NCBI GenBank assembly: GCA_977020255.1
Contig: CDROCS010003925.1
Span: forward strand, 1-64,000
DNA length: 64,000 nt
DNA from: Obrimoposthia wandeli
Lineage: Eukaryota
Reading direction: 5' to 3'
Positions within the stretch are counted from its first letter, which is position 1. Every line of letters begins with the position of its first letter. The notes under the pieces are model-generated. The model searched no databases. It was not told the origin of the DNA and worked only from the letters and a program-made list of their open reading frames with translations. The position numbers and the translations under genes were made by a program. Shown one piece after another: positions 111 through 14,920 of this stretch.

Positions 111-222
111 TACAAAAAATAAATTATTTGAATAAGAGGCTCTCATTGGACAATAAAAGAGGGTTAGTAAGATGTTTGTGTATATAAAGACACCTCCGTT
201 CATTATTTTTCATAAAATCAGC

Positions 223-1050
223 ATGCCATTCTACAACAACGTTGACCTAGACGAAGAGACGGAGGTTCGCTTCTATGGGGATCTCTCCGGTGAAGAAGGA
301 ACGCCACCACTGTCGCAATACATTGACTTAGATAGTCAAGAGTCATCGGTGGTGAGCGAAGGAGAAGCAGCAGCAAGAGCGAACCTGTTACAAGAAGAAG
401 CCTCATTGGCCAGCTCAACTCCAAGAGAAGAACCAATGGACGTGAGAGGTGGGGTACAGAGATCCCAATATATCGATCTGACTAGTCAGGATTCGATAGA
501 GAATTGGGAAGACTGTACTCCCAGGCAAAACATAGAAGCTGTTCGTCCAACAACGTCGGCAGTAGCAGCAAGGAGATCCTGGCCATGGAAATTGATCCCG
601 CTGTCTCAGCCGGAGAAAGTCCTCGCACCAGACTCAGACGAGGAGCTGTTCACCGATGATGTACCTTCGGATTGGGAGGAGGACTTGACTCCATTCATCG
701 ACGAATGGATACAGCCAAGTTTCGGAGCCCGGTAGAGCCAACGATTCGATGGTAGCAGAATTGGACGAGGATGCGGGCGCCTTCCGTTCACCGACGATTG
801 GGATGGTGTCACTCCCTCTACAACTCCAACTCCGATAGCCGACAATACGGTGCCAGATTCATTCAAAAGACCGCAATCTCCGATACGTCCTGTTAGGAGA
901 ATAAAGGCGACGAATGAGGTTAGACATCATTTATTTAAAATGTTTTTTAATTTCATTTTTTAGAAACTTCAACTGGATTTGGCACCGTCAGTAATCACGA
1001 TTGAGAGGCTGATTGAACTGCAGTACTTGACGAGTCAATGTAGCCAGGAT
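223..1050 (+). pseudogene. 5' part of the Polinton left-arm gene: acidic disordered protein with repeated SIM-like motifs, disrupted
   Basis: ORF 172-735 (better ATG at 223, after TATA at 181) with NVDLDEE, SQYIDLDSQE and SQYIDLTSQD. After TAG 733-735 the frame continues (DDWDGVTPS...RRIKATNE) to a GT..AG intron at 919-963, and homology to 2038-2280 ends at ~1050. Confidence 0.6.
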
Positions 1051-1097
1051 GATTGATCTTTCACCCAAATTTTCAAATACCGTAATTGATTGACTAC

Positions 1098-1337
1098 TAT
1101 AGATGTGTTGGTCAACTATAGTTGACCACAATTATACATTCAAACCTTCAAGTCATAACTGAACCCAACCCTTTCATCAATGGTCGAGCCTAACCTTTAG
1201 ATGTGTTCGTCAACTATAGATGGTCACAACCATACCTTCAAGTCATAACTGAATCCAACCATTTCATCTATGGTCGACCACAACACCTAGGGTATATTGG
1301 CCGACCATTTACGGTCACGATTATACCTTCATAACCT
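1098..1337 (+). repeat. Degenerate tandem repeat, ~90-98 bp unit x ~2.5, containing a 20 bp palindrome
   Basis: Units start at ~1100, 1198 and 1288 (tagatgtgtt.gtcaactatag...accttcaagtcataactgaa.ccaacc.tttcatc.atggtcga). Perfect palindrome TGGTCAACTATAGTTGACCA at 1109-1128. Confidence 0.8.
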
Positions 1338-1459
1338 TTCTCAGCCAGACTCTTATGGTGAGACATCCTTATGGCGTGACACTCTTGTGGTGTGGCACAC
1401 TTAAACATTGTGTGCGCACACAGGGAGGTCAAGTGATCTAGATTCCATCCTTATACCTA

Positions 1460-1553
1460 CTCCTTGATGCTACTGCCGAGGTTGTTGGACGAGCAGCTTC
1501 TGTATTCCGTCGGGAGTACAGTCTTCCCAAATCTCAATCGAATCCTGACTAGT
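1460..1553 (-). repeat. Inverted, diverged copy of 481-575
   Basis: Reverse complement actagtcaggattcgattgagatttgggaagactgtactccc...cggcagtagcatcaaggag matches 481-575 at ~85-90% by eye. Confidence 0.85.
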
Positions 1554-1687
1554 AATTTTTAAGGGTGTTGGTGGGTGGGGTAAATAGAAAAAACATATAA
1601 AGTTACTCTATATAATTCATAAAGTCATATATAGGGATTTATTGGCAGTAGTATGGCACGGTCGGACAAATTGGTGAATTTCAGAAG

Positions 1688-2007
1688 TTAAATGGTAAGA
1701 CCAGGAATCGTATGAACCTGCTTGAATTCGCTATTGACGGAATTCAAGTATCCCATGCGCTTAAGTTTCCAATTCCGTTTCCCCACCTTGACCACCGTAC
1801 CATCCACCGCCAGTAACTGTACTTGTGCAGTTGAAAGGTGTATAATCGTCTCAGGACAAGTATATATTTTTTCACTCCATACACATTCCCGAAATTTGCC
1901 TCCACATACATACAAGGTTTTAAAGGACAGTAGTAGCCTCCCCCACTGGTGGGAGGGGGGATTAGAACGGACATATCCACCTTTAAATGTATATTGAATT
2001 ATACGAC
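1688..2007 (-). CDS. Unidentified terminal exon or ORF (~105 aa) inside the left-arm insertion
   Basis: An acceptor-like cttaacttttcag precedes an open frame TYSRIIQYTFKGGYVRSNPPSHQWGRLLLSFKTLYVCGGKFRECVW...PGLTI*. No family recognised. Confidence 0.35.
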
Positions 2008-2037
2008 TGTATGTCTGAAAAGTTAAGAATAGTTAAA

Positions 2038-3210
2038 AACGATTGGGATGGTCTCACTCCCTCTGCTACTCCGAAAGCAGATAATACAATGCCTGAATCA
2101 TTCAAAAGGCCGAAATCTCCTGTTAGGAGAATAAAACCGACGAATGAGGTTAGACATCATTTATTTTAAATGTTTTTTAATTTCATTTTCAGAAACTTCA
2201 ACTGGATTTGGCACCGTCAGTGACCATGGTGGAGAGGCTAATTGAACCGCAGTACTTAGCGAGTCAATGCAGCCAGGAGCTGCCAAGGAGTCAGCTCCGA
2301 TACCTAGCATCTCCAGATAATTTTAAGGTAAATTATTTAGATATTAAAGTTAATAATTCATATAGATGGAGAACATTCACAAAGAGGCGACGTCTATTCA
2401 ACCGGTGGATAAGAAGCAAGCGGCAGTTAAGAAACCGCAACGCCATCGGGTCAAAACCCTCACTCGGAAGAAGGCCAAGTTGGTGAAACAGGCTAACATG
2501 CCCATCATTGAGGTAAATTCATTATATGTTTAAATTTTATTAATATTTTGCAGGAACCCGTCCAGATATTTGAGGAGACTTGGGGAGAAGTTACTCCTTT
2601 CTCGCGGAAACGGACGAAGAGGGCAGAGGTGAAGAAGACGAGGCGCTCGAGAAAATATAAAACCTCAATTGGTCATTATTCTGAGACGGTAATTGGCCAG
2701 CAAGAGATTCTCCCATCTCCAGTGGACGACGGTCCAATCCTATATGAGAGGATCCCAGTCTCACCGATCAAGATAAGTCCGCCCTCAAGTCAACGACGCC
2801 TGCATGAGACTGCTTCTCCTCATCCAACAACCAGCTAGAACTTAAAGAGGGCCTGGGATGAAGCAGGATTGGACGAATTCCTGGCGGAACTGGATTTACC
2901 GGCAATGCTTCCAGATTCGCGTGGGCAACAGGATGCCGTCTCACGCCAGCTTCAGCGTGAGAAGGAGGAGAAACAGAAGAAAGCTCCGCGGAAGAGGACT
3001 TCTACGTCGGAACCATCAACATCGACTGCACCTCCTTCCAAAAAGTTGCGGCAACTATTGCCAAAATCTGAGGGAAGGACAATTGCTACAAAGCAACCGG
3101 TGAAGCCGAAAAAGAAACCGGGCCGGCCAAAGAAGAAGGAACCAGTACCGCTTTCTCCTATAATACTTAGTCGGAGGGATTTCGATCCGGATGATCCCAA
3201 TGATGACTTT
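2038..3210 (+). pseudogene. 3' part of the left-arm gene: spliced basic/Pro-rich disordered protein with NLS-like clusters
   Basis: Phase-0 GT..AG introns at 2149-2192, 2328-2365 and 2513-2553 join ORFs 1987, 2208 and 2548 into one frame. A single in-frame TAG (2836-2838) separates this from ORF 2869, which is in the same frame. 2038-2280 duplicates 793-1050 at ~80%. Confidence 0.7.
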
Positions 3211-3438
3211 GTAAAAATGTTTAAAAATATAATTTATAAAAATTAATTTCATATGTTTTCTTCTTAATATTTATTTTTTTAATTTAGAAATACTATCTTT
3301 AAGTTTATTAGCAATGATAAGTTATAGATTTATTAAACACTCATTTGATAAATAAAAATATATCATTTAATTGGATTAAGAAATATCTTTAATTTATATA
3401 TATAGGTTCAAATTTATTAACCTCTTCATAATTAAAAA

Positions 3439-3801: not shown

Positions 3802-3901
3802 GAGAATTGACAAAATATACCAATCTTATCATGAAAGTACTTTGTTATTTTAATAAATTTTTTCGTTATAAACAACGCGATTGCTGCAAATTTAGATAAT
3901 T

Positions 3902-4390
3902 ATGCAGGAATATATCATAGATTTTGAGGTTTTCATTAACAAAAATGGTGATTATATTATAAAAGAATTATGTATTATGGATGTATGCAACGTTTTTCAT
4001 CCTTTGCATTTCATATTTAAAATATATATACCGTTTAAAAGTTTAGATTATAAGAAAAAATTTACTAATTTATATCTAACTAATTATTTTCATTTATTAA
4101 AATGGAAAGAAGGACATAAGGCTTTTTGTGAAATATGTATTTTCGATACAATAAAATCTAATTTTGATATTGAAAATGGAATTTTTTATGTTTTAGATGA
4201 AATGGATGGCAAAAAATATAAGACTTTAAAAAAATATTTTTCTAAATTGAGATTGAATACTTTAAATATTTCACGTGATCATCTATTAAAAATTCCAGAA
4301 AATATTTGCTGTCCATATCGCATTCATAGTGACCATTGCGCATATAAAATATGTTTAAGTCTTTCTTATTATTACTTGACATGTAGATAA
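3902..4390 (+). CDS. DEDD/RNase T-fold exonuclease-like small protein (162 aa)
   Basis: N-terminal IIDFEVF...YIIKELCI (ExoI-like DxE), central YFHLLKWKEG and C-terminal CCPYRIHSDHCAYK, a pattern I associate with small exonuclease-like ORFs of invertebrate Polinton-type elements. ORF is intact. Confidence 0.6.
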   Translation: MQEYIIDFEVFINKNGDYIIKELCIMDVCNVFHPLHFIFKIYIPFKSLDYKKKFTNLYLTNYFHLLKWKEGHKAFCEICIFDTIKSNFDIENGIFYVLDEMDGKKYKTLKKYFSKLRLNTLNISRDHLLKIPENICCPYRIHSDHCAYKICLSLSYYYLTCR

Positions 4391-4605
4391 ACAAATTTTC
4401 TAATTGGAGAAATTCATTATTAAAATTTTACAATTATTTACAAATAAGCCATTTGATTGGAGGAATAAAAAATAAATTTTTCGACCATTTAACAGATAAA
4501 CAATTCTTCTCAATTTTTTAATCCAATAGGAAAAGAGCATGTGTGCATAAATTTTAGTATATAAGCAAACACTTTCTTCATTTAAATCCCCGACAATTTG
4601 AAATT

Positions 4606-7093
4606 ATGACTATGGTAAGAATCTATACTTATTATTTCCTTATTAATATTTATTATTTCAGATTACGTGTAACCTATTCCCTGCGTATTGTGGTGCTTCG
4701 GCTCCGCATGGAGGAGAGTCCTGCATGGAGACAATGTCTGCATACTACCGGACAAAGTCTCGCGGGCTTCACTTCTTCGTCTGCCCCTTCTGCAGAACAA
4801 TGGAGGAGAAGGAGTTTCGAGACTTATTCTGTGAACATCGAGCTCACCTATCGTGTTTCACGGCCAACAACAAGAAGAGGGATATCGTGCAATTGGTGCG
4901 CGATTCGCAGGCCGCTCCACCTCCAATTCCAGTTGCAGTCGATCAACCCTTTTACGGTCCTGCAATTGGTCTCCCGGCTCCTGATTCTGCCCCATCCACT
5001 CAAATGTCTAACAATGAGTGGATGAATGACATATCCCAGTCAGATTTCGAGATAGAGCAGTGGAGCAATAACTCATGGTTGGAGACCATCGAGGAATCCG
5101 ATTTCGTCGAGATATCGGACGACAGCTGGATGGATTCCATCAATGAAGAGGACTTCATTCCAGCTCAACTTGGATTGCCTTCATTAGGTTTTTTTTTTTT
5201 TTTTTGTAAAAATTATATATTTTATTTTTATTTTTTATTCAGGAAATACCGTTCTACAATCGTCATCTGCTACAACAGATATGCCTCCACCATCGCGAGT
5301 GCCTACATCGATGTTAGCAAGCCTTAGAGGTAATAATTTTACAAAATATATTTATTTTTTAATATATTTATACAGCACTAACCTCTACAACAGCCGCTTC
5401 TTCGTCGGCAAGATCAGCGGTCCCTTCAACATCAGCTACAGTTGCCTCAACATCGGCAGCATCAACAATAGCAGCAGCTTTCACATCAGCTGCAATTGCC
5501 TTAACTATTAATATAAATAGTTGTCTTCCCGTTCAATTAGGGGGAGGTTTGTCAGCGACAAACGAAAGAAAGAGGCGAGGCCAATTTCTTAATAAGGTCC
5601 CACCCAAAAAACGTAGAGAAAACGGTGTTACTATAGAGTATCACCTAAATAATAAATATGTTATAGTTAAGGTGCCATTAGAAAATGAAATTTTAATAAA
5701 CGTAGGTGTAGATTCAAATATTGAAAATCTTTTAAAATCAGAAGTGACTAAATTAGGACAGGCTAAGGTTCAATTTTGCGCAACAGTGCAGTTTAAAAAT
5801 GTCAATGAGGAAACTAAAACTTGGGTAATTTCACATAAAGCAACTGTTTTTATGATAATTTTGTAACTGAAATTGGAAGAAACCTGGATGAAAAAATTGC
5901 TAATTATAGCGAGTTAAGTAGTGGATGGACTCTAGTTAGAATTCACGATGTTAGCTTTGTTCTAACAAAGTTCACTGACATGATATATCTTTCGGGGAGT
6001 TCATACATTCCTTCACCTAGATCTCTTCAACTTTCACGTTCCATTGTTAACGTACAAAACAGTGATAACCTTTGCTTTCTGTATAGCGTGTTGGCCATCC
6101 TCAAAAGGGATGTAATTACTGAGCATAGAGAGCGTGTCAGTAAATATACCCCTTTTTTAAATGAATTGCAGTATCATGGAATAATTTTTCCTGTTAAATT
6201 AACTGCGATATCAAGATTTGAACATCTTAATAACTTGAGTATTAATGTATTCAAATATAATACTGATATCCCAGTTAATGTAGAAATATTTAAAAATCCT
6301 TTTGTAGATGTAATTTATAGGAGCAAAAATGAGGAGACTCAGGTCAACTTAATTTTGCTCGAACAGAATAATAAATTCCATTATGCTGCAATTCCCAGTT
6401 TAGATCGTCTTCTAAATTTAGATAATGGAGCCTTACCGGTTAGGATAAGGTGTAAGTGGTGTCATAGATGTTTGCATGGATTCCGATCCGAGCTCTCTTA
6501 CAGCAAACATCTGACATTATGTTCACTGAATCCTGATGACAATACGCTATATAGCATGCCTAAGGATAAGGATTTAAAATTCAGGGATTGGGCAAAATGC
6601 ATACCCGTGGAATTCAGGGTGTATGCAGATTTTGAGTCAATTTTAGCATTGCACGACCAGTATGAGAGTATTCACCTACCGGCTTCGACAGGACTACTAT
6701 TCTTAGGCCCCAATATTACTCAGTATCATAAATTTTCCGGTCCAAATTGTATTTTAGATTTTATGTTAAAATTAGAGGAATTAGGAACAACAATTGTCAA
6801 ACCGTGGTATGATCTCAATGCTCATCAAGCAATGATCATGACAGGCATAGACTGGGTTAATTTTAATTCTTGTAGATTATGTTATTTGTGTGGAACCCAG
6901 TCTAAGTTAGTCAGAGATCACGATCATGTTACGGGGCGATACTTGGGAGCGGCGTGCAACCTCTTTAACATTGGCCGTCGTCTCCCTAAAAAACCACGTA
7001 TAACTGAATTTGAAAGTGTAAGTCTTCAAGACTATAAATTGTCTTATGTCTTTTATTATTTTACCCTTATATTTTTAGAGATTTAAAAAATAA
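4606..7093 (+). pseudogene. Spliced pPolB-derived gene: RING-H2-like + acidic Trp repeats + S/T/A linker + pPolB N-terminal region + ExoI + EndoVII Zn module; no polymerase core
   Basis: Exons 4606-4614, 4662-5187, 5243-5329, 5376-7017 and 7079-7093 are phase-consistent, with one frameshift near 5850. Motifs SSGWTL..I, SGSSYIP, IVNVQNSDNLCFLYSVLA, HYAAI..L.RLL, WCHRCLHGF..HLTLC, VYADFES, CYLCG..VRDHDHVTGRYLGAACN are typical of Polinton pPolB N-terminal halves. Confidence 0.85.
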
Positions 7094-7123: not shown

Positions 7124-7492
7124 TTATAACACACTAATTGTTTTGCAACGATAACCAACGATAATTTTTAGCTTCTTTTTACTTTTAAATCCACTACCTC
7201 CTTGGCTTTTATTTGATTTGCGTTTTCTAATCAAATTAGCAACTTCAGGTAAAACATTATCAAGTTCATCAAGTGCATGCTTCTTAAAAGTTGGTATTAG
7301 TTTGTTGTCCTTTGATGAAAGGTAATCCTTTCCTAATTTTGATATAAATCGCCCGAGGCTCTTTAAAAGAGGAAAGGCAAATCTACCTAATGTTCTAAGC
7401 CAGCCAGATCCGTATTGTTTACCAACAAAATATGGTAATTCTCCACCTTGTTGGCTTTGACTATAAGCTTCAATTATTGCTGGATTCGCAAT
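7124..7492 (-). CDS. Conserved Polinton small virion-type protein (PZ/PW class, amphipathic, QxGG motifs), ~122 aa; not in the ORF track
   Basis: Hand translation: (I)ANPAIIEAYSQSQQGGELPYFVGKQYGSGWLRTLGRFAFPLLKSLGRFISKLGKDYL...SQGGSGFKSKKKLK...VL*. Starts at ATT overlapping the penton 3' end, probably a mutated ATG. AATAAA follows the stop directly. Confidence 0.75.
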   Translation of the reverse strand: MANPAIIEAYSQSQQGGELPYFVGKQYGSGWLRTLGRFAFPLLKSLGRFISKLGKDYLSSKDNKLIPTFKKHALDELDNVLPEVANLIRKRKSNKSQGGSGFKSKKKLKIIVGYRCKTISVL

Positions 7493-8527
7493 TTTGTTTT
7501 CTTAAATGTATTGTTAAACTTGTCTTGGCCCCGTACGTGAAATCTATTAGTTGTCCGGAATCATCTCTAATATTTACTTCAATATTGTTTATAGAAAAGA
7601 GAGAAACTGGAAGATACATTGGTTGATCTATACACATACCGACAGTGTCCCCATCTCTAGTTTCATTTTTAGATATCCATATTGTTCTCAAAAGTGGAAC
7701 TCGCTGTCCTCCTACAAGCGTTGGTTCTATTAAATTAGTATAAATATATAAATGATTAACAGCATTTAAAAGTTTTGCCTTATTTTTAGCTTTTATGGTT
7801 TTTATTGTATGGGTTTCAAAGGTATTTCTGTTTAAACCAAGGTTTTTAGCGAGTTTATCATCAAATGAAACTCGTTTTATATTGCTCTTTACTGTAAACG
7901 TTAATTTACCATTTAATGTTTCACATTTATCCAAATATTCACTACATTCCTTCTGTATTAATTTACAGAAATTCACTTCACTATCTATTTTATAATCTTT
8001 TGAAAATGTTTTCAGTTCCACTACAGTCTTTGGTCTCGTCTCAAGTAACAACACTTTTGCTACTCTACCAGGAACATTTCTAACCGAATTAGATGAGATA
8101 ATATCCCGTTTATTACGAGCTACTGTTTGTTCACTATCAAAACTGAATTGAAGAGCTTCTTTTTTAGATTCAAAATTAATTTTAATAACTTGAAGAAATT
8201 TTAATCAATTTTTAAATCTGACTTTGTTATTTTCAAATATTACTTTCACTTCTTTATCACTACAATTGTAATAGAATTGTCCTTTACTATCAAACCCGAT
8301 CACAACTTCAGTTGTTTTTTCATGATCAACTTCTTTGTAAATGAAATATGTGAGTTTTTTTTGATAGTAATTGGAGAATAATAAAAAGAAAATTCTGTTA
8401 AAGCCGCTTCCCATTCTCCTTGGAGATTTATAGAATTTTCCCAATCGATAATAAAGCTACTAGCGTCATTATCTGGTTGAGTCTTCGGACATCCGTTACT
8501 TGGTAAAACCATATACATAGAATTCAT
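7470..8527 (-). pseudogene. Minor capsid protein (penton, PX-like), frameshifted
   Basis: N-terminus MYMVLPSN..PDNDASSFIIDWENSINLQGEWEAALTEFSF and C-terminus HLYIYTNLIEPTLVGGQRVPLLRTI..PMYLPV..INNIEVNIRD.SG..IDF..TSLTIHLRK are characteristic. Split over ORFs 8300-8527, 8205-8444 and 7470-8054. Confidence 0.85.
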
Positions 8528-9552
8528 ATTATTTTAGATGCTGATATCCAAGTTGGGTCTGAATAACCATGCCATTTAACAAAGTATTGTTTATGTTTAC
8601 CTGTACCCTTAGATTTTAATATTTTTTGAATACGGAAAACGCTAGGTTTATTTGATATTACTTGTAGTTCTTGCTCGTAAAATTTATCGTGAACGATATT
8701 ATTGTCAGCATCTTTAATAGTATACATTATTGGATTACTCTTTTGATCAATTTTACTTATACAAAATATTTCATCACTCCAATTCTGATCAAAGTTTTTA
8801 ATAAATGGAGTAGAGCTAATTTTCGAAATTCGAACATATTCGTTTTTCTTATATTTAGCTTTTTTAATATTTTCTTTTTTATTCCTGTTCATCCAAATAT
8901 CTATAGAATTTTTATTAGTAACATCAACAGGTCTCATTCCCTTGAGACCTCTATGTTCCAAGTGATTATATGCATGTATTATTTTAGGTATAACTTGGAT
9001 CCATTTTTTATTTCCTTCTTTTGTGAAATACTTTTTTATTCGATCTCTTAAAGTACGATTAAATCTTTTTACTACTGCTGCTTTATACTGTGAAAACACA
9101 GAGTAGTGATTTATATTATTTTGTTTAAATAATGATTGAACTTGCTTATTATAAAATTCTTTTCCTAAATCAGTTTGCACATTTTGTGGAATGTCCTCTT
9201 TTAATATTTCTTTAATGGCTTCAAGCATAGCTATTAAAAACTTTGCTTTAACTGGAATTGCACGAGCAAACCTGCTAAATACATCAATACATGCTAAAAT
9301 ATATCGATATCCCTTATTAATGGAAGAATATGGGATCATCTCCATCAAATCCATTTGCCATAAATTATTAGGACCGCTGGTTTTGTAATCTCTAGTTGGA
9401 AACCTTCTTCTCATCGGCTTGTTCAGACTGTACGCTAACTGGTCGCTCAGCCATTTCTGAGTTTTCTTGTAATTTTGTTTTGTTCTTTTTGCTAATTTTG
9501 AAACTCCTGTGTAGCCAATTGGATCTTTTGGATTGAACCATATCTTCTCCAT
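8524..9552 (-). CDS. Polinton retroviral-type integrase with C-terminal chromodomain; third catalytic residue appears E->K
   Basis: MEKIWFNPKDPIGY start; LWQMDL (D1), ILACIDVFSRFA, VQTDLGKEF (D2), AAVVKRFNRTL (K where ERFNRTL is expected); chromodomain QYFVKWHGYSDPTWI. Stop overlaps the penton ATG (ATGA). Confidence 0.92.
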   Translation of the reverse strand: MEKIWFNPKDPIGYTGVSKLAKRTKQNYKKTQKWLSDQLAYSLNKPMRRRFPTRDYKTSGPNNLWQMDLMEMIPYSSINKGYRYILACIDVFSRFARAIPVKAKFLIAMLEAIKEILKEDIPQNVQTDLGKEFYNKQVQSLFKQNNINHYSVFSQYKAAVVKRFNRTLRDRIKKYFTKEGNKKWIQVIPKIIHAYNHLEHRGLKGMRPVDVTNKNSIDIWMNRNKKENIKKAKYKKNEYVRISKISSTPFIKNFDQNWSDEIFCISKIDQKSNPIMYTIKDADNNIVHDKFYEQELQVISNKPSVFRIQKILKSKGTGKHKQYFVKWHGYSDPTWISASKII

Positions 9553-9638
9553 TACAACAATTTGAATAGAAAGAAAATTTAAGTTTAGGTAAAGAAGGGC
9601 TAGCACCCATATCTTTAGCTGATTTTAGAAATAATTGT

Positions 9639-9969
9639 TTATGAACGTGTCGCAGCTATAATACTACTGATAATTGAAGCAACAACTGGAATAACAGCCC
9701 CTATGAAACCGCCATTATGTTTAAGAATAATATTTCGTTTCCTTTTTTTACTTTTTACATTAGCAATATCTAGAAGAGTTTTTCTATATTTCTTTAATAT
9801 ATTTTTCCGATTTCCAACTTTTACTCGACCCAAAACTATATTATACAAAACTTCCAATAAATCATCTACAACAAAGGATGGAAATGCTTTAAGAATAATC
9901 ATTCTCTTATTAGAAGAGGCTTTGACTAAAGCTTTAAAATAGGGTATGCTTTTTTTATATTTTCTTCAT
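9639..9969 (-). pseudogene. Conserved Polinton small basic protein ending GGF + hydrophobic helix (PW/PZ class)
   Basis: ..KALVKASSNKRMIILKAFPSFVVDDLLEVLYNIVLGRVKV..KRKRNIILKHNGGFIGAVIPVVASIISSII. The likely ATG at 9969 is out of frame across an A-run. Confidence 0.75.
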
Positions 9970-10172: not shown

Positions 10173-10789
10173 TTATAAACAGTTACTCCCTTTAGAATTA
10201 AATATGTCTGTTAAAACACGTAAATCATCTGGGCAAGCTTGTGTAAAGTCAATAAATATATACCCATGTGCTTGTTTAGCAGCATCGTGGAATGAATCAA
10301 CTAGAAAGTTCTTATTTTGAGGAAATGCCTGTCTGGCCACAAAATCAACAACTGTTTGATCTCTAGGATTTTTAAATAAAACTAAGTAATGTACATTAAG
10401 ATTTCTTGTTCTATGGTGACCTCCTTGGTGAAACAGATTTTGAGTGATAAATATAACTGTAACTTCACGATGTCTTGCAATCTTTGTAAATAAATTATTA
10501 AAGTCCGATTCCTTGTTAGCCTCCTCATACAAATCATCAATTATTATTACATCTTCTTTTTTTCAATCTTTCACACCAATTTGCATCAAATCCTTCAATA
10601 AATTTTATACCCTTCAACTTACAAACTTCTGTTTTGGTTAACCCGCTTTCCTGCACCATGATGCCAATAAATATTTTTGAAACAAGATTTGAAAAGAGAT
10701 TCATTTTGCAACAATTTACAGACGAAATGTGTCTTTCCACTTCCACTTGGGCCAACTATTTGAAATACAGCATTATTATTTAGCTCCAT
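10173..10789 (-). pseudogene. A32/FtsK-like genome-packaging ATPase, two frameshifts
   Basis: MELNNNAVFQIVGPSGSGKTHF (Walker A), VIIIDD (Walker B), FTKIARHREVTVIFITQNLF, RTRNLNVHYLVLFKNPRD, AAKQAHGYIFID. Three different frames are needed to read it through. Confidence 0.9.
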
Positions 10790-11126: not shown

Positions 11127-11625
11127 TTATAGAAAAGATAACAAGATGTAATAAGATATATTTTCTAAAATAAAATCAACTATGTCTGGATAATCAAAAT
11201 TTTTCAATCCCAATATCATAACTTTACCACTGGAAAATATATTTACACATAGCGGTTTAAACTTCAAATAACTGAGAGCAGGAAAAATTTCTGGTTCAAA
11301 CATGCATTCTTCTTTCATTTTCTCTGCAGTTTTAAAAAGATTTATCTGTTTCCCGAGATTAGCCGAAATCGTGATTGATTGTATTGCAGTGATTTGAATT
11401 CCAAATGGTAAATTGAACCTAAGCATTGGTATTTTGCATCCCATAACACGACAATTTCCTAAAGAATTCAATATGAAAATAAAATAAAAACTAACCTGTA
11501 GGAAAAATAACAACTGTGAAATTGTCAAACTTTTCTACATATTGTCTCGGCTTTCATTCATTGAATGGTAAGTACGAAACATCATCTTCTGTTCTACCTT
11601 TATAATTTATATTTACGAGTTTCAT
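11127..11625 (-). pseudogene. TATA-binding-protein-like gene (2 exons, ~153 codons, one in-frame TGA)
   Basis: Exon 1 11625-11496, intron 11495-11459 (GT..AG, 37 bp), exon 2 11458-11127. Translation MKLVNINYKG..PFNE*KPRQYV..VVIFPTG|NCRVMGCK..IQSITISANLGKQINL..CMFEPEIFPALSYLKFKPLCVNIFSSGKVMILGLK matches both TBP pseudo-repeats (LIFxSGKxVxTGAK; YEPELFPGL). Confidence 0.8.
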
Positions 11626-11862: not shown

Positions 11863-12339
11863 ATGCATTCATATCAAAGACAATTATCAACGATGGACGA
11901 TAGCCAACGGGTATTAGGCGATGACGAAGAAATGTTTGAAGAATCGGATAAGGATATGTATGAAGAAGTGAAACAATATTTCCAATACAAAGTCAGATTC
12001 TTGAAGAAGGCTCAACTGATTGCTTTAGTAAATCCTGTGACAATTGAAAGAAGAAAGTTCAGCTACTATCTATCAGGTATTCAAAAACCTGATTTTCAAT
12101 ATCTTAAACAGAAAATAGAAAAGGCAGTTCCGAATTTTACTTTCAATAAGAACGAATTTTATATCCGAGGAGCCGATGAAGCATTTCTAGATGACTATGG
12201 AAGATATGTTGATATTGATGCGTTTCCGAAAAAGAAGCAATGGACTGTAACAATTCGACTTTATGGTTACAAGAAAGATGAAATGGGAACAAAGTTGCCT
12301 ATGTGGAAAATTGAACGTGCTCATATTTCTATGTTTTAA
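11863..12339 (+). CDS. Hypothetical protein A of a tandem paralog pair (possible OB-fold/SSB-like)
   Basis: Intact 158 aa ORF with an acidic N-terminus. Aligns by eye with 12485-12877 (LK..Q.I...NPV.I, DF..LK, F.DD.G, W...IRL.GY..D, P.W....A). The fold is an inference. Confidence 0.65.
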   Translation: MHSYQRQLSTMDDSQRVLGDDEEMFEESDKDMYEEVKQYFQYKVRFLKKAQLIALVNPVTIERRKFSYYLSGIQKPDFQYLKQKIEKAVPNFTFNKNEFYIRGADEAFLDDYGRYVDIDAFPKKKQWTVTIRLYGYKKDEMGTKLPMWKIERAHISMF

Positions 12340-12484
12340 CTTTTGTGTGTAATAAATTGTAATCGGTTTTACTATGTTTCTTTCATTTAATAATCAGTTT
12401 TATTTGTATCTTATTTGTATCTTATGTGTATTTTTTATAAAACATTGTTTTTAATCAGTTTCCTTATTTTAGAATGGATAAGAG

Positions 12485-12877
12485 ATGTGTAGCAAATTTT
12501 ATTATCCAGAAAGAATTTCAAAAGGAAAACTATGTAATATATTAAAGAGGCATCAAATTATACGAGTTATGAATCCTGTGAAAATATCAAAAGTGGAGAA
12601 AAAATATCTCATCGAAATTTTAACAACAACTGATTTTGATCAACTGAAAAATATTTTGGGATTTTACATTCCTGATTATGTATATGAAGGAAATTGTTTC
12701 GAGCTTGAAACTGATCCCAGTCTGGATTTTAAAGATGATCTAGGATATTTGATTGCTCCAATTCTAGATGAAGAACTATGGAATATCTCAATACGTCTGA
12801 ATGGATATTTTGCTGATGACGGGAAAATGCAGCCTCTCTGGACTTTAAGTGAAGCCAATATGTTGTTTTATGTTTAA
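12485..12877 (+). CDS. Hypothetical protein B of a tandem paralog pair (possible OB-fold/SSB-like)
   Basis: Intact 130 aa ORF sharing the motif series with 11863-12339, followed by AATAAA. Confidence 0.65.
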   Translation: MCSKFYYPERISKGKLCNILKRHQIIRVMNPVKISKVEKKYLIEILTTTDFDQLKNILGFYIPDYVYEGNCFELETDPSLDFKDDLGYLIAPILDEELWNISIRLNGYFADDGKMQPLWTLSEANMLFYV

Positions 12878-12946: not shown

Positions 12947-13113
12947 ATGTTTTTCGTGCCTGTAGATCAAGAATGAAGCCCGCCCCGAAGGGACGGGTGG
13001 TGTATGTTAGGTTATGACACGGGTCGTTTACATTTGTAGTTGTGAAAGGTAAAGTGATACTGTAGCGCATGTTTTTTGTAGTTATTTTCGCGAGAATGGA
13101 GCCCGCCCCGACG
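12947..13113 (-). repeat. Right terminal inverted repeat (runs into the assembly gap)
   Basis: atgtttttcgtgcctgtagatcaagaatgaagcccgccccgaagggacggg...gtgaaaggtaaa mirrors 1-110. A second copy of the gaatg(a/g)agcccgccccga motif begins at ~13094. Confidence 0.9.
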
Positions 13114-14228: not shown

Positions 14229-14484
14229 CTATCCACTCTGTGTTACATCACACCACACTTGCTTTGGGCCCCTGTTAGCTATTCTGTGAACATAACTCCT
14301 TGAACACACCACAAATCAGAAAGACACAAAACCTTCAGATTGAGACTAGAATTAATTAGGACAACAACAGGTAGGCCACATCCATCTGTAAGCCCTATCA
14401 ATACAGAACTCACGTTGTGGGCCTCCATACGAGGATCTATTTGAAGAGTTTCAAATAAAACCCACAACAAACTTAAGGATTTTG

Positions 14485-14920
14485 CTTAAGGATTTGAACC
14501 TCTACTTTTAGTATTTGCTGACTTTGAGAGTTTGCTTGAGCCAGATCGTGATTATAATCAACAACACGTACCTATTTATGTTGGTTTATTGCTTAAACAT
14601 AATATTGATGATGTGAGAGAACATTATTCTTTTTAAGGTTGTGATTTTGAAAATGATTTATTTGATAAATTAAACGAAAATCTCATAAATAAAGTAGTGA
14701 CTTTTTATAATGAACATATGAATGCAAGCATGGTTTATATTAATTCAGGTAAACTTAATCATTTCAATGCTACTCAATGGTACTTGTGTAAGAAACCGCA
14801 ACCCTATTATGTCCGCAAAGTCCCTCTTGCTTTGAAGCCTGGATAAAAATAAATAAAAATTTCAATTCTTTTTAGAATTGAAATGTTTTTTGTTGAAATA
14901 ATTTATGTTTATAGGATGCT
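14485..14920 (+). mobile_element. Dispersed repeat copy 1, derived from a different Polinton pPolB (ExoI to EndoVII start)
   Basis: Translates VFADFESLLEPD..QQHVPIYVGLLL..NATQWYLCKK with a stop. Highly similar to 31879-32284. Confidence 0.75.

Follow-up and report, generated by a model that had tools for sequence, protein, structure and literature searches.

The window analysed here is a 64,000-nucleotide stretch of the Obrimoposthia wandeli genome (assembly GCA_977020255.1, contig CDROCS010003925.1, positions 1 to 64,000 of the forward strand). Positions 1 to ~13050 belong to a single Polinton/Maverick-like (adintovirus-like) element, within which the window starts. Besides the gene that is the subject of this work, the element comprises the following features.

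19-106, strandless: left terminal inverted repeat; arm 19-51 pairs with 13003-13035 and arm 55-106 with 12950-13001, both in the range 94-96%, the true end lying beyond the window start
7124-8204, minus strand: two likely virion-module ORFs, a small QxGxG-rich protein and a minor-capsid-like protein
8524-9624, minus strand: rve integrase with chromodomain (PF00665, E 3e-12, above cut-off; PF00385, E 2e-4, below cut-off)
9639-9965, minus strand: pX-like small basic protein (PF05829, E 0.014, below cut-off)
10173-10562, minus strand: piece of an A32-like packaging ATPase (PF04665, E 0.019, below cut-off)
11127-11534, minus strand: TBP-like gene (PF00352, E 6e-12)
12950-13035, strandless: right terminal inverted repeat, partner of left arms 19-51 and 55-106

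The Polinton hallmarks present are the terminal inverted repeats and the rve-chromodomain integrase. A pPolB with an OTU-like N-terminal domain is present at the family level (PF03175 in sister copies, Cys/His motifs), the window copy being truncated. Target-site duplications of Polinton/Maverick elements measure 6 bp. The ORFs at 7124-8204, which gave no Pfam match and one weak PHROG match of unknown function, are likely virion-module genes. In another copy the small virion gene is followed by capsid-like ORFs, recognised by eye and with no significant profile or PDB match, which the window copy lacks. The element family is very abundant in the 1.35-Gb genome, where scoring 40 candidates of a DNA search yielded 52 matches, and where a protein search for the Cys/His exon described below gave at least 94% identity in 150 of 150 scored matches. 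Of 50 loci collected, two were the window sequence and one was a duplicate; 47 sister copies remained, 45 of them well covered and 0.5-5% divergent from the window (median divergence 2.3%). A second family was found in the same genome by a search with a distant homologue. It also carries a TBP-like gene (PF00352; L081:3368-3874, minus strand, E 5e-11), which lies head-to-head with pPolB, and a literature search on Polintons and the TATA-binding protein yielded nothing beyond a general review.

Elsewhere in the window, GC-rich ORFs with short AT-rich introns lie at 157-3246 (plus strand) and display the acidic-aromatic motifs IDLDSQ, IDLTSQ, DWEEDL and DEFLAELDL. A segment of ~250 bp is duplicated (794-1049 and 2039-2278), coding sequence at 481-575 and 1460-1553 forms an internal inverted duplication, and tandem repeats of 90-98 nt occur near the left end (1097-1331). 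An ORF of 164 aa at 3896-4390 (plus strand) starts with IDFEVF and appears DEDD exonuclease-like by eye, with no Pfam or PHROG match. Close to the right terminal repeat, a pair of ORFs (11863-12339 and 12482-12877, plus strand) look distantly alike (VNPVxI..., IRL.GY..D.G.....W.) and match no family. Outside that repeat, a decayed pPolB-like fragment (FADFES..., WYLCKK) was recognised by eye at 14420-14800 (plus strand). In the genome at large, ubiquitin-family matches (150 of 150 scored, on many contigs, many of them divergent and some forming 89-aa tandem frames) hint at a mobile family of ubiquitin-like sequences, and the host RPA70N domain is split by introns.

The gene under study comprises a leader and the N-terminal part of pPolB, with the following organisation.

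4557-4563, plus strand: TATA-like box TATATAA, ~45 nt 5' of the ATG, a putative promoter element by sequence only
4606-4614, plus strand: exon 1, MTM; length constant in 44/44 copies
4615-4661, plus strand: intron 1, 47 nt, phase 0, GTAAGA..TTCAG; GC 0.17; GT..AG in 44/44 copies
4662-4880, plus strand: module of ~70 aa with eight Cys/His (23 homologues, ligand counts, omega 0.16, model pLDDT 80.5)
4668-4724, plus strand: CCHC half of the module, C6/C13/H19/C24, from conservation in homologue modules
4782-4847, plus strand: C2H2-like half, C44/C47/H62/H65, from conservation in homologue modules
4881-5006, plus strand: Pro-rich linker, variable in length among copies by sequence comparison
5007-5162, plus strand: three acidic Trp repeats, W-[ML]-x-x-I-x-x-x-D-F (units 5019-5048, 5076-5105, 5127-5156)
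5188-5242, plus strand: intron 2, phase 1, 55 nt in the window and 46-88 nt among copies, with the weak donor AG/GT[AT]TTT; GT..AG in 42/44 copies
5243-5329, plus strand: exon 3, Ser/Thr/Pro-rich; 87 nt in 42/44 copies
5330-5375, plus strand: intron 3, phase 1, 46 nt in the window and 34-51 nt among copies; GT..AG in 42/44 copies
5376-5533, plus strand: Ser/Thr/Ala linker, growing in copies mostly by whole codons; omega 0.53, p 0.03
5534-5617, plus strand: QLGGG (5534-5548; 37/46 copies) followed by RKRR..KKRR
5650-5965, plus strand, limits approximate: terminal-protein-like domain of pPolB, SSGW loop at 5917-5928; putative identity from position and the available portion of 10.1101/2024.03.18.585575
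6040-6400, plus strand: vOTU-like protease domain, LCFLYS 6070-6087 and HYAAI 6379-6393, aligned to P0025; name adopted from the literature
6451-7001, plus strand: further pPolB with a Cys/His knuckle, a YADFES exonuclease-like motif and an endonuclease VII-like insert (6868-6969), ending at ~7001

The GC content of the three introns, 7-17%, compares with 37-50% in exons 2-4, and the phases (0, 1, 1) link the ATG at 4606 through exon 4 with the first stop not before 5864. The original prediction had placed introns at 4615-4661, 5188-5242 and 5330-5375, and their GT..AG ends, drop in GC, compatible phases and stop-free join are all present. Intron counts refer to the 44 of 47 copies in which all boundaries are aligned (L019, L020 and L040 left out), and because copies are only 0.5-5% diverged, conservation of GT and AG alone is weak evidence. 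As far as sequence can indicate splicing, free intron lengths set against mostly frame-keeping exons are better evidence than the dinucleotides. The lengths of introns 2 and 3 fall into all three classes modulo 3 in the 44 copies, and indels common to at least two of 43 loci (L004, L019, L025 and L040 left out) are multiples of three in 18 of 27 coding cases versus 8 of 22 intronic cases (p 0.047). In the second family, 28 of 30 loci also have a GTRAG..YAG pattern just 5' of the module. It is thus likely that the leader is joined to pPolB by three short introns at these predicted junctions.

Two other observations concern the surroundings of these introns. In P0011, P0015, P0017, P0018, P0020 and P0023, G-[KNT]-[ILF]-hydrophobic tails follow the module immediately, as expected if a splice donor lies there. 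In most copies the unspliced frame from the ATG (4606-5025) remains open across the module, and three length variants of intron 1 differ by multiples of three. As a coding candidate this +1 frame (plus strand, 139 aa) was rejected as a shadow, with omega ~2 and no counterpart in the second-family locus checked.

A single frame running into pPolB had been proposed, and here the window copy agrees in part: the join holds from ATG 4606 through exon 4, but the copy is frameshifted between 5831 and 5880, its spliced frame meeting a stop at 5866, midway through the terminal-protein domain. The remaining pPolB of this copy occupies another frame, 5839-7086. This frameshift is common only to one 98.8% identical copy, whereas 45 of 46 other copies covering the spot are unbroken, and in two sister copies the frame of exon 4 extends as far as PF03175. 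In the window copy, similarity to a sister pPolB ends at 7001, which leaves this copy without the polymerase core. The window copy is a non-autonomous remnant.

The fusion of module and pPolB is nonetheless real, because the second family and four outside clusters join both in one open frame, which independently supports the proposed attachment to the pPolB N-terminus. In the second family the eight ligands are present in 30/30 loci, 22 of which are open into the SGW loop of the terminal protein and 21 into the LCF motif of the vOTU, and a single natural frame of 1242 aa extends from the module to YGK and DTDS. In the outside clusters P0005, P0019, P0030 and P0009/P0025, the module and the terminal-protein region likewise share one frame. 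The order of the polypeptide is very probably module, Pro linker, acidic repeats, Ser/Thr/Ala linker, QLGGG, basic patch, terminal protein, vOTU, exonuclease/endonuclease VII and polymerase.

A HMMER (phmmer) search of 1.84 billion proteins gave 24 matches, 23 of them with the module; P0024, with Not3-like repeats, was a chance match and was removed from the homologues. None of 20 homologues looked up bears an informative name. Word-index protein searches, viral-contig scans and one metagenome scan revealed no relatives, Pfam gave no match to the window module at E<=1, and a PDB sequence search returned zinc-ribbon noise only (E>=0.15). Homologues are often tandem, with two or three head-to-tail modules, and in P0003, P0007 and P0012 the modules sit behind classical zf-C2H2 fingers.

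Ligands were counted in 41 modules from homologue proteins, P0025 and the second family, P0009 and P0025 being treated as one cluster. Retention is nearly complete at C6 (32/32), C13 (35/35), C24 (37/38), C44 (40/40), C47 (40/40), H62 (40/40) and H65 (38/40), so that CxxC and the two His are conserved as one site. The C47-H62 gap measures 13-14 in 39/41 modules. H19 drifts by one or two columns, and a complete C-C-H-C half is found in 32/41 modules; of the nine others, five are cut by the ORF start and four are internal repeats with the second half only. The resulting consensus is C-x3-7-C-x4-7-H-x2-6-C ... YY-hairpin ... CPxC-x12-15-H-x2-H-x3-F. C60 and C68 behave differently, being kept in 0/40 and 1/40 homologue modules even though the profile was built from the same matches and would favour, not hide, their conservation. 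Among sister copies C60 is Ser or Gly in 13/46 overall and in 8/18 DNA-selected copies. All Cys/His positions listed in the original prediction are present in the window exon, and its side remark that C6/C13/H19/C24 may form a second zinc site fits the conservation pattern. The module is best described as an unclassified unit of a CCHC and a C2H2-like half, predicted to bind two zinc ions.

At the nucleotide level, the substitution pattern indicates that the Cys/His exon is under purifying selection. Counting changes common to at least three of 46 copies, 13 are silent and 6 are replacements (omega 0.16, p 0.0001; other frames 2.1 and 3.2), a value biased down by the choice of loci L022-L050, more than half of the set, by protein similarity. 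The 18 DNA-selected copies alone show 5 silent, 5 replacement, 1 stop and 0 second-position changes in this exon.

AlphaFold2 on 24 aligned sequences produced a model with pLDDT 80.5 and pTM 0.65, as compared with pLDDT 40.9 for the single-sequence fold. The model displays a short helix, a helix at 18-29, strands at 30-33, 36-41 and 46-48 and a helix at 52-63. The structure prediction suggested at the outset was thus obtained, with no significant match to a RING or any other fold: the fold search gave 0 matches at E<=0.001 in the PDB and viral sets, with no RING among the strong rows, an outcome that does not count against any fold family. The best PDB row was Tramtrack (E 1.0), with Kaiso and CTCF among other weak rows, all C2H2 proteins and not significant, and the best Z, 2.6, was to the ARS2 complex, again not significant. 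In the atlas, the two-module homologue P0013 has C2H2 clusters nearby at 0.90-0.93, which are leads only and share 107-155 of 256 features, versus 170 typical for true family members. Similar to classical C2H2 fingers (Tramtrack 2DRP, Kaiso, ARS2 zinc finger), the module carries CxxC on a hairpin and two His on a helix. It differs from them in its H-x2-H spacing and 12-15 residue gap, and it has one more strand and one more helix as well as the CCHC half. The classical consensus spacing, C-x2-4-C-x12-H-x3-5-H, does not fit the module, and in contrast with the beta-beta-alpha arrangement the model has three strands followed by a helix, its best C2H2 rows remaining at E>=1.0 and Z<=2.6.

Downstream of the module, the three acidic repeats, the Ser/Thr/Ala linker and QLGGG that had been read from the window copy were all recovered. 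The repeat tract contains 31% D/E and 31% WFYLIM and no K/R; among 37 in-frame copies, 31 have three repeats, 4 have four and 2 have two. With omega 0.77 (p 0.42) the repeats display no significant purifying selection, and they were observed only in the family of the window copy, with none in 30 second-family loci. Acidic activation or RPA/TFIIH-binding tracts such as the p53 TAD and VP16 are acidic, with spaced Trp/Phe/Leu/Met and no basic residues. The repeats resemble these in make-up, while a search for a sequence-family match to them found none. QLGGG resembles the QxGxG motifs of the element's small virion ORF and of P0016 and P0019, and no motif of this type was found in the second family. 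Judged by motif, QLGGG is a possible protease site and RKRR..KKRR a possible nuclear-localisation signal.

By analogy with these systems, we propose, at roughly even likelihood, that the leader module binds DNA and targets the priming precursor while the acidic repeats recruit host factors. The module would bind DNA and steer the terminal-protein priming precursor to element ends or promoters, the acidic Trp repeats could bind partners or host factors as acidic activation domains do, and cleavage at QLGGG might release the leader. DNA binding is the simplest reading because of the tandem arrays, the company of classical C2H2 fingers and the C2H2-like second half; it rests on analogy because no fold match is significant. 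H-x2-H and the 12-15 residue gap differ from classical DNA-binding fingers.

A less probable but still credible alternative is that the module is a UBZ-like protein binder, with ubiquitin or a ubiquitinated host factor as its most plausible partner, and acts together with the vOTU within the same polypeptide. Homologues gave zf_UBZ matches (4/24, E 0.0024-0.074) and BIR matches (3/24, E 0.0054-0.047), and the TAX1BP1 UBZ is among the weak fold rows (E 7.1). These profile matches, however, all fall far below the curated cut-offs and cover CxxC surroundings common to many zinc fingers, and the helix between the His ligands has no conserved acidic residue.

Whether DNA or protein is bound, the form of the product may vary with splicing of intron 2, the donor of which is weak (AG/GTATTT in 31/44 and AG/GTTTTT in 11/44 copies) and the retention of which leads to an in-frame stop in 30/44 copies. 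One speculative reading, to which we attach a low probability, is that one gene yields two products, intron-2 retention giving a transcription activator (the two-zinc DNA-binding module with acidic Trp activation repeats) and full splicing joining that module to the priming terminal protein, which would provide the replicase with its own origin-recognition domain. Adenoviruses leave origin recognition to host NFI and Oct-1. It is slightly more doubtful still that a short stand-alone regulator (module plus repeats, ~190 aa) made by intron-2 retention is the main product and the long fusion a minor splice form. A zinc finger with an acidic domain is a transcription-factor layout, and the element encodes a TBP-like protein. 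Yet AATAAA is absent from introns 2 and 3 in all 44 copies, the length of exon 3 is constant in 42/44, the Ser/Thr/Ala linker is under purifying selection and relatives carry the module and terminal-protein domain in one frame.

That the leader is a separate upstream gene, joined in frame by chance, with the pPolB start further down, is very improbable: three phases would match by chance about once in 27, but the single-frame fusions in the second family and four outside clusters and the frame-keeping indels of exons 3-4 argue against it. The reading that extends the earlier RING-H2 label to a pPolB-fused E3 ubiquitin ligase is scarcely tenable, since the spacing C44-x2-C47-x12-C60-x-H62-x2-H65-x2-C68 of the window copy, although accompanied by RING-named atlas clusters at 0.77-0.81 (below 0.9 and hence leads only) and by an OTU-like deubiquitinase domain further 3', is a chance arrangement of six Cys/His in which ligands 3 and 6 (C60 and C68) are unconserved and 7-8, the distal CxxC, absent, the RING pattern occurs in 0 of the 25 proteins compared and not in the window exon, and the model is a helix, three strands and a helix around CxxC/HxxH.

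DNA binding by a fused leader remains the preferred reading, and the leader can be placed against published pPolB proteins. In published models of Polinton pPolB, replication is primed by a terminal-protein domain, which a vOTU protease is proposed to cut off, according to the available portion of 10.1101/2024.03.18.585575, and the accessible text of PMC8502044 and 10.1101/2024.03.25.586562 takes an N-terminal OTU domain as the defining feature of adintovirus PolB. As far as the accessible portions of 10.1101/2024.03.18.585575 and PMC8502044 describe them, the published proteins and elements resemble those reported here in the terminal protein with Ser-Gly loop, the OTU-like domain (Cys/His motifs), the exonuclease and PF03175, and in the terminal inverted repeats, rve-chromodomain integrase and A32-like ATPase. 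In the same portions, published pPolB has two N-terminal domains (D1, D2) without a zinc module, acidic repeats or spliceosomal introns, and the present leader precedes both. The module is also reminiscent of adintovirus 'Oncoid' proteins, which, in the accessible text of PMC8502044, are encoded 5' of PolB and carry CXXC zinc motifs and short linear motifs. These are, however, separate ORFs with LXCXE or CR1 (PMC8502044, same portion), whereas the module is fused to PolB, and the window exon translations contain no LXCXE. The module is not described in the literature searched, a scope short of supplements, Repbase and subscription papers, including the accessible parts of 10.64898/2026.10.13.758929, 10.1101/2023.08.22.554363, PMC11296320 and PMC3671162, the last of which, in its available text, reports a different zinc ribbon, stand-alone or nuclease-fused.

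The module adds a domain family absent from Pfam, and in several families it immediately precedes the terminal protein. Short introns conceal such leaders from ORF-based annotation, so that published pPolB N-termini may be incomplete. The module is a candidate for how Polinton polymerases recognise termini and how these elements switch on genes.
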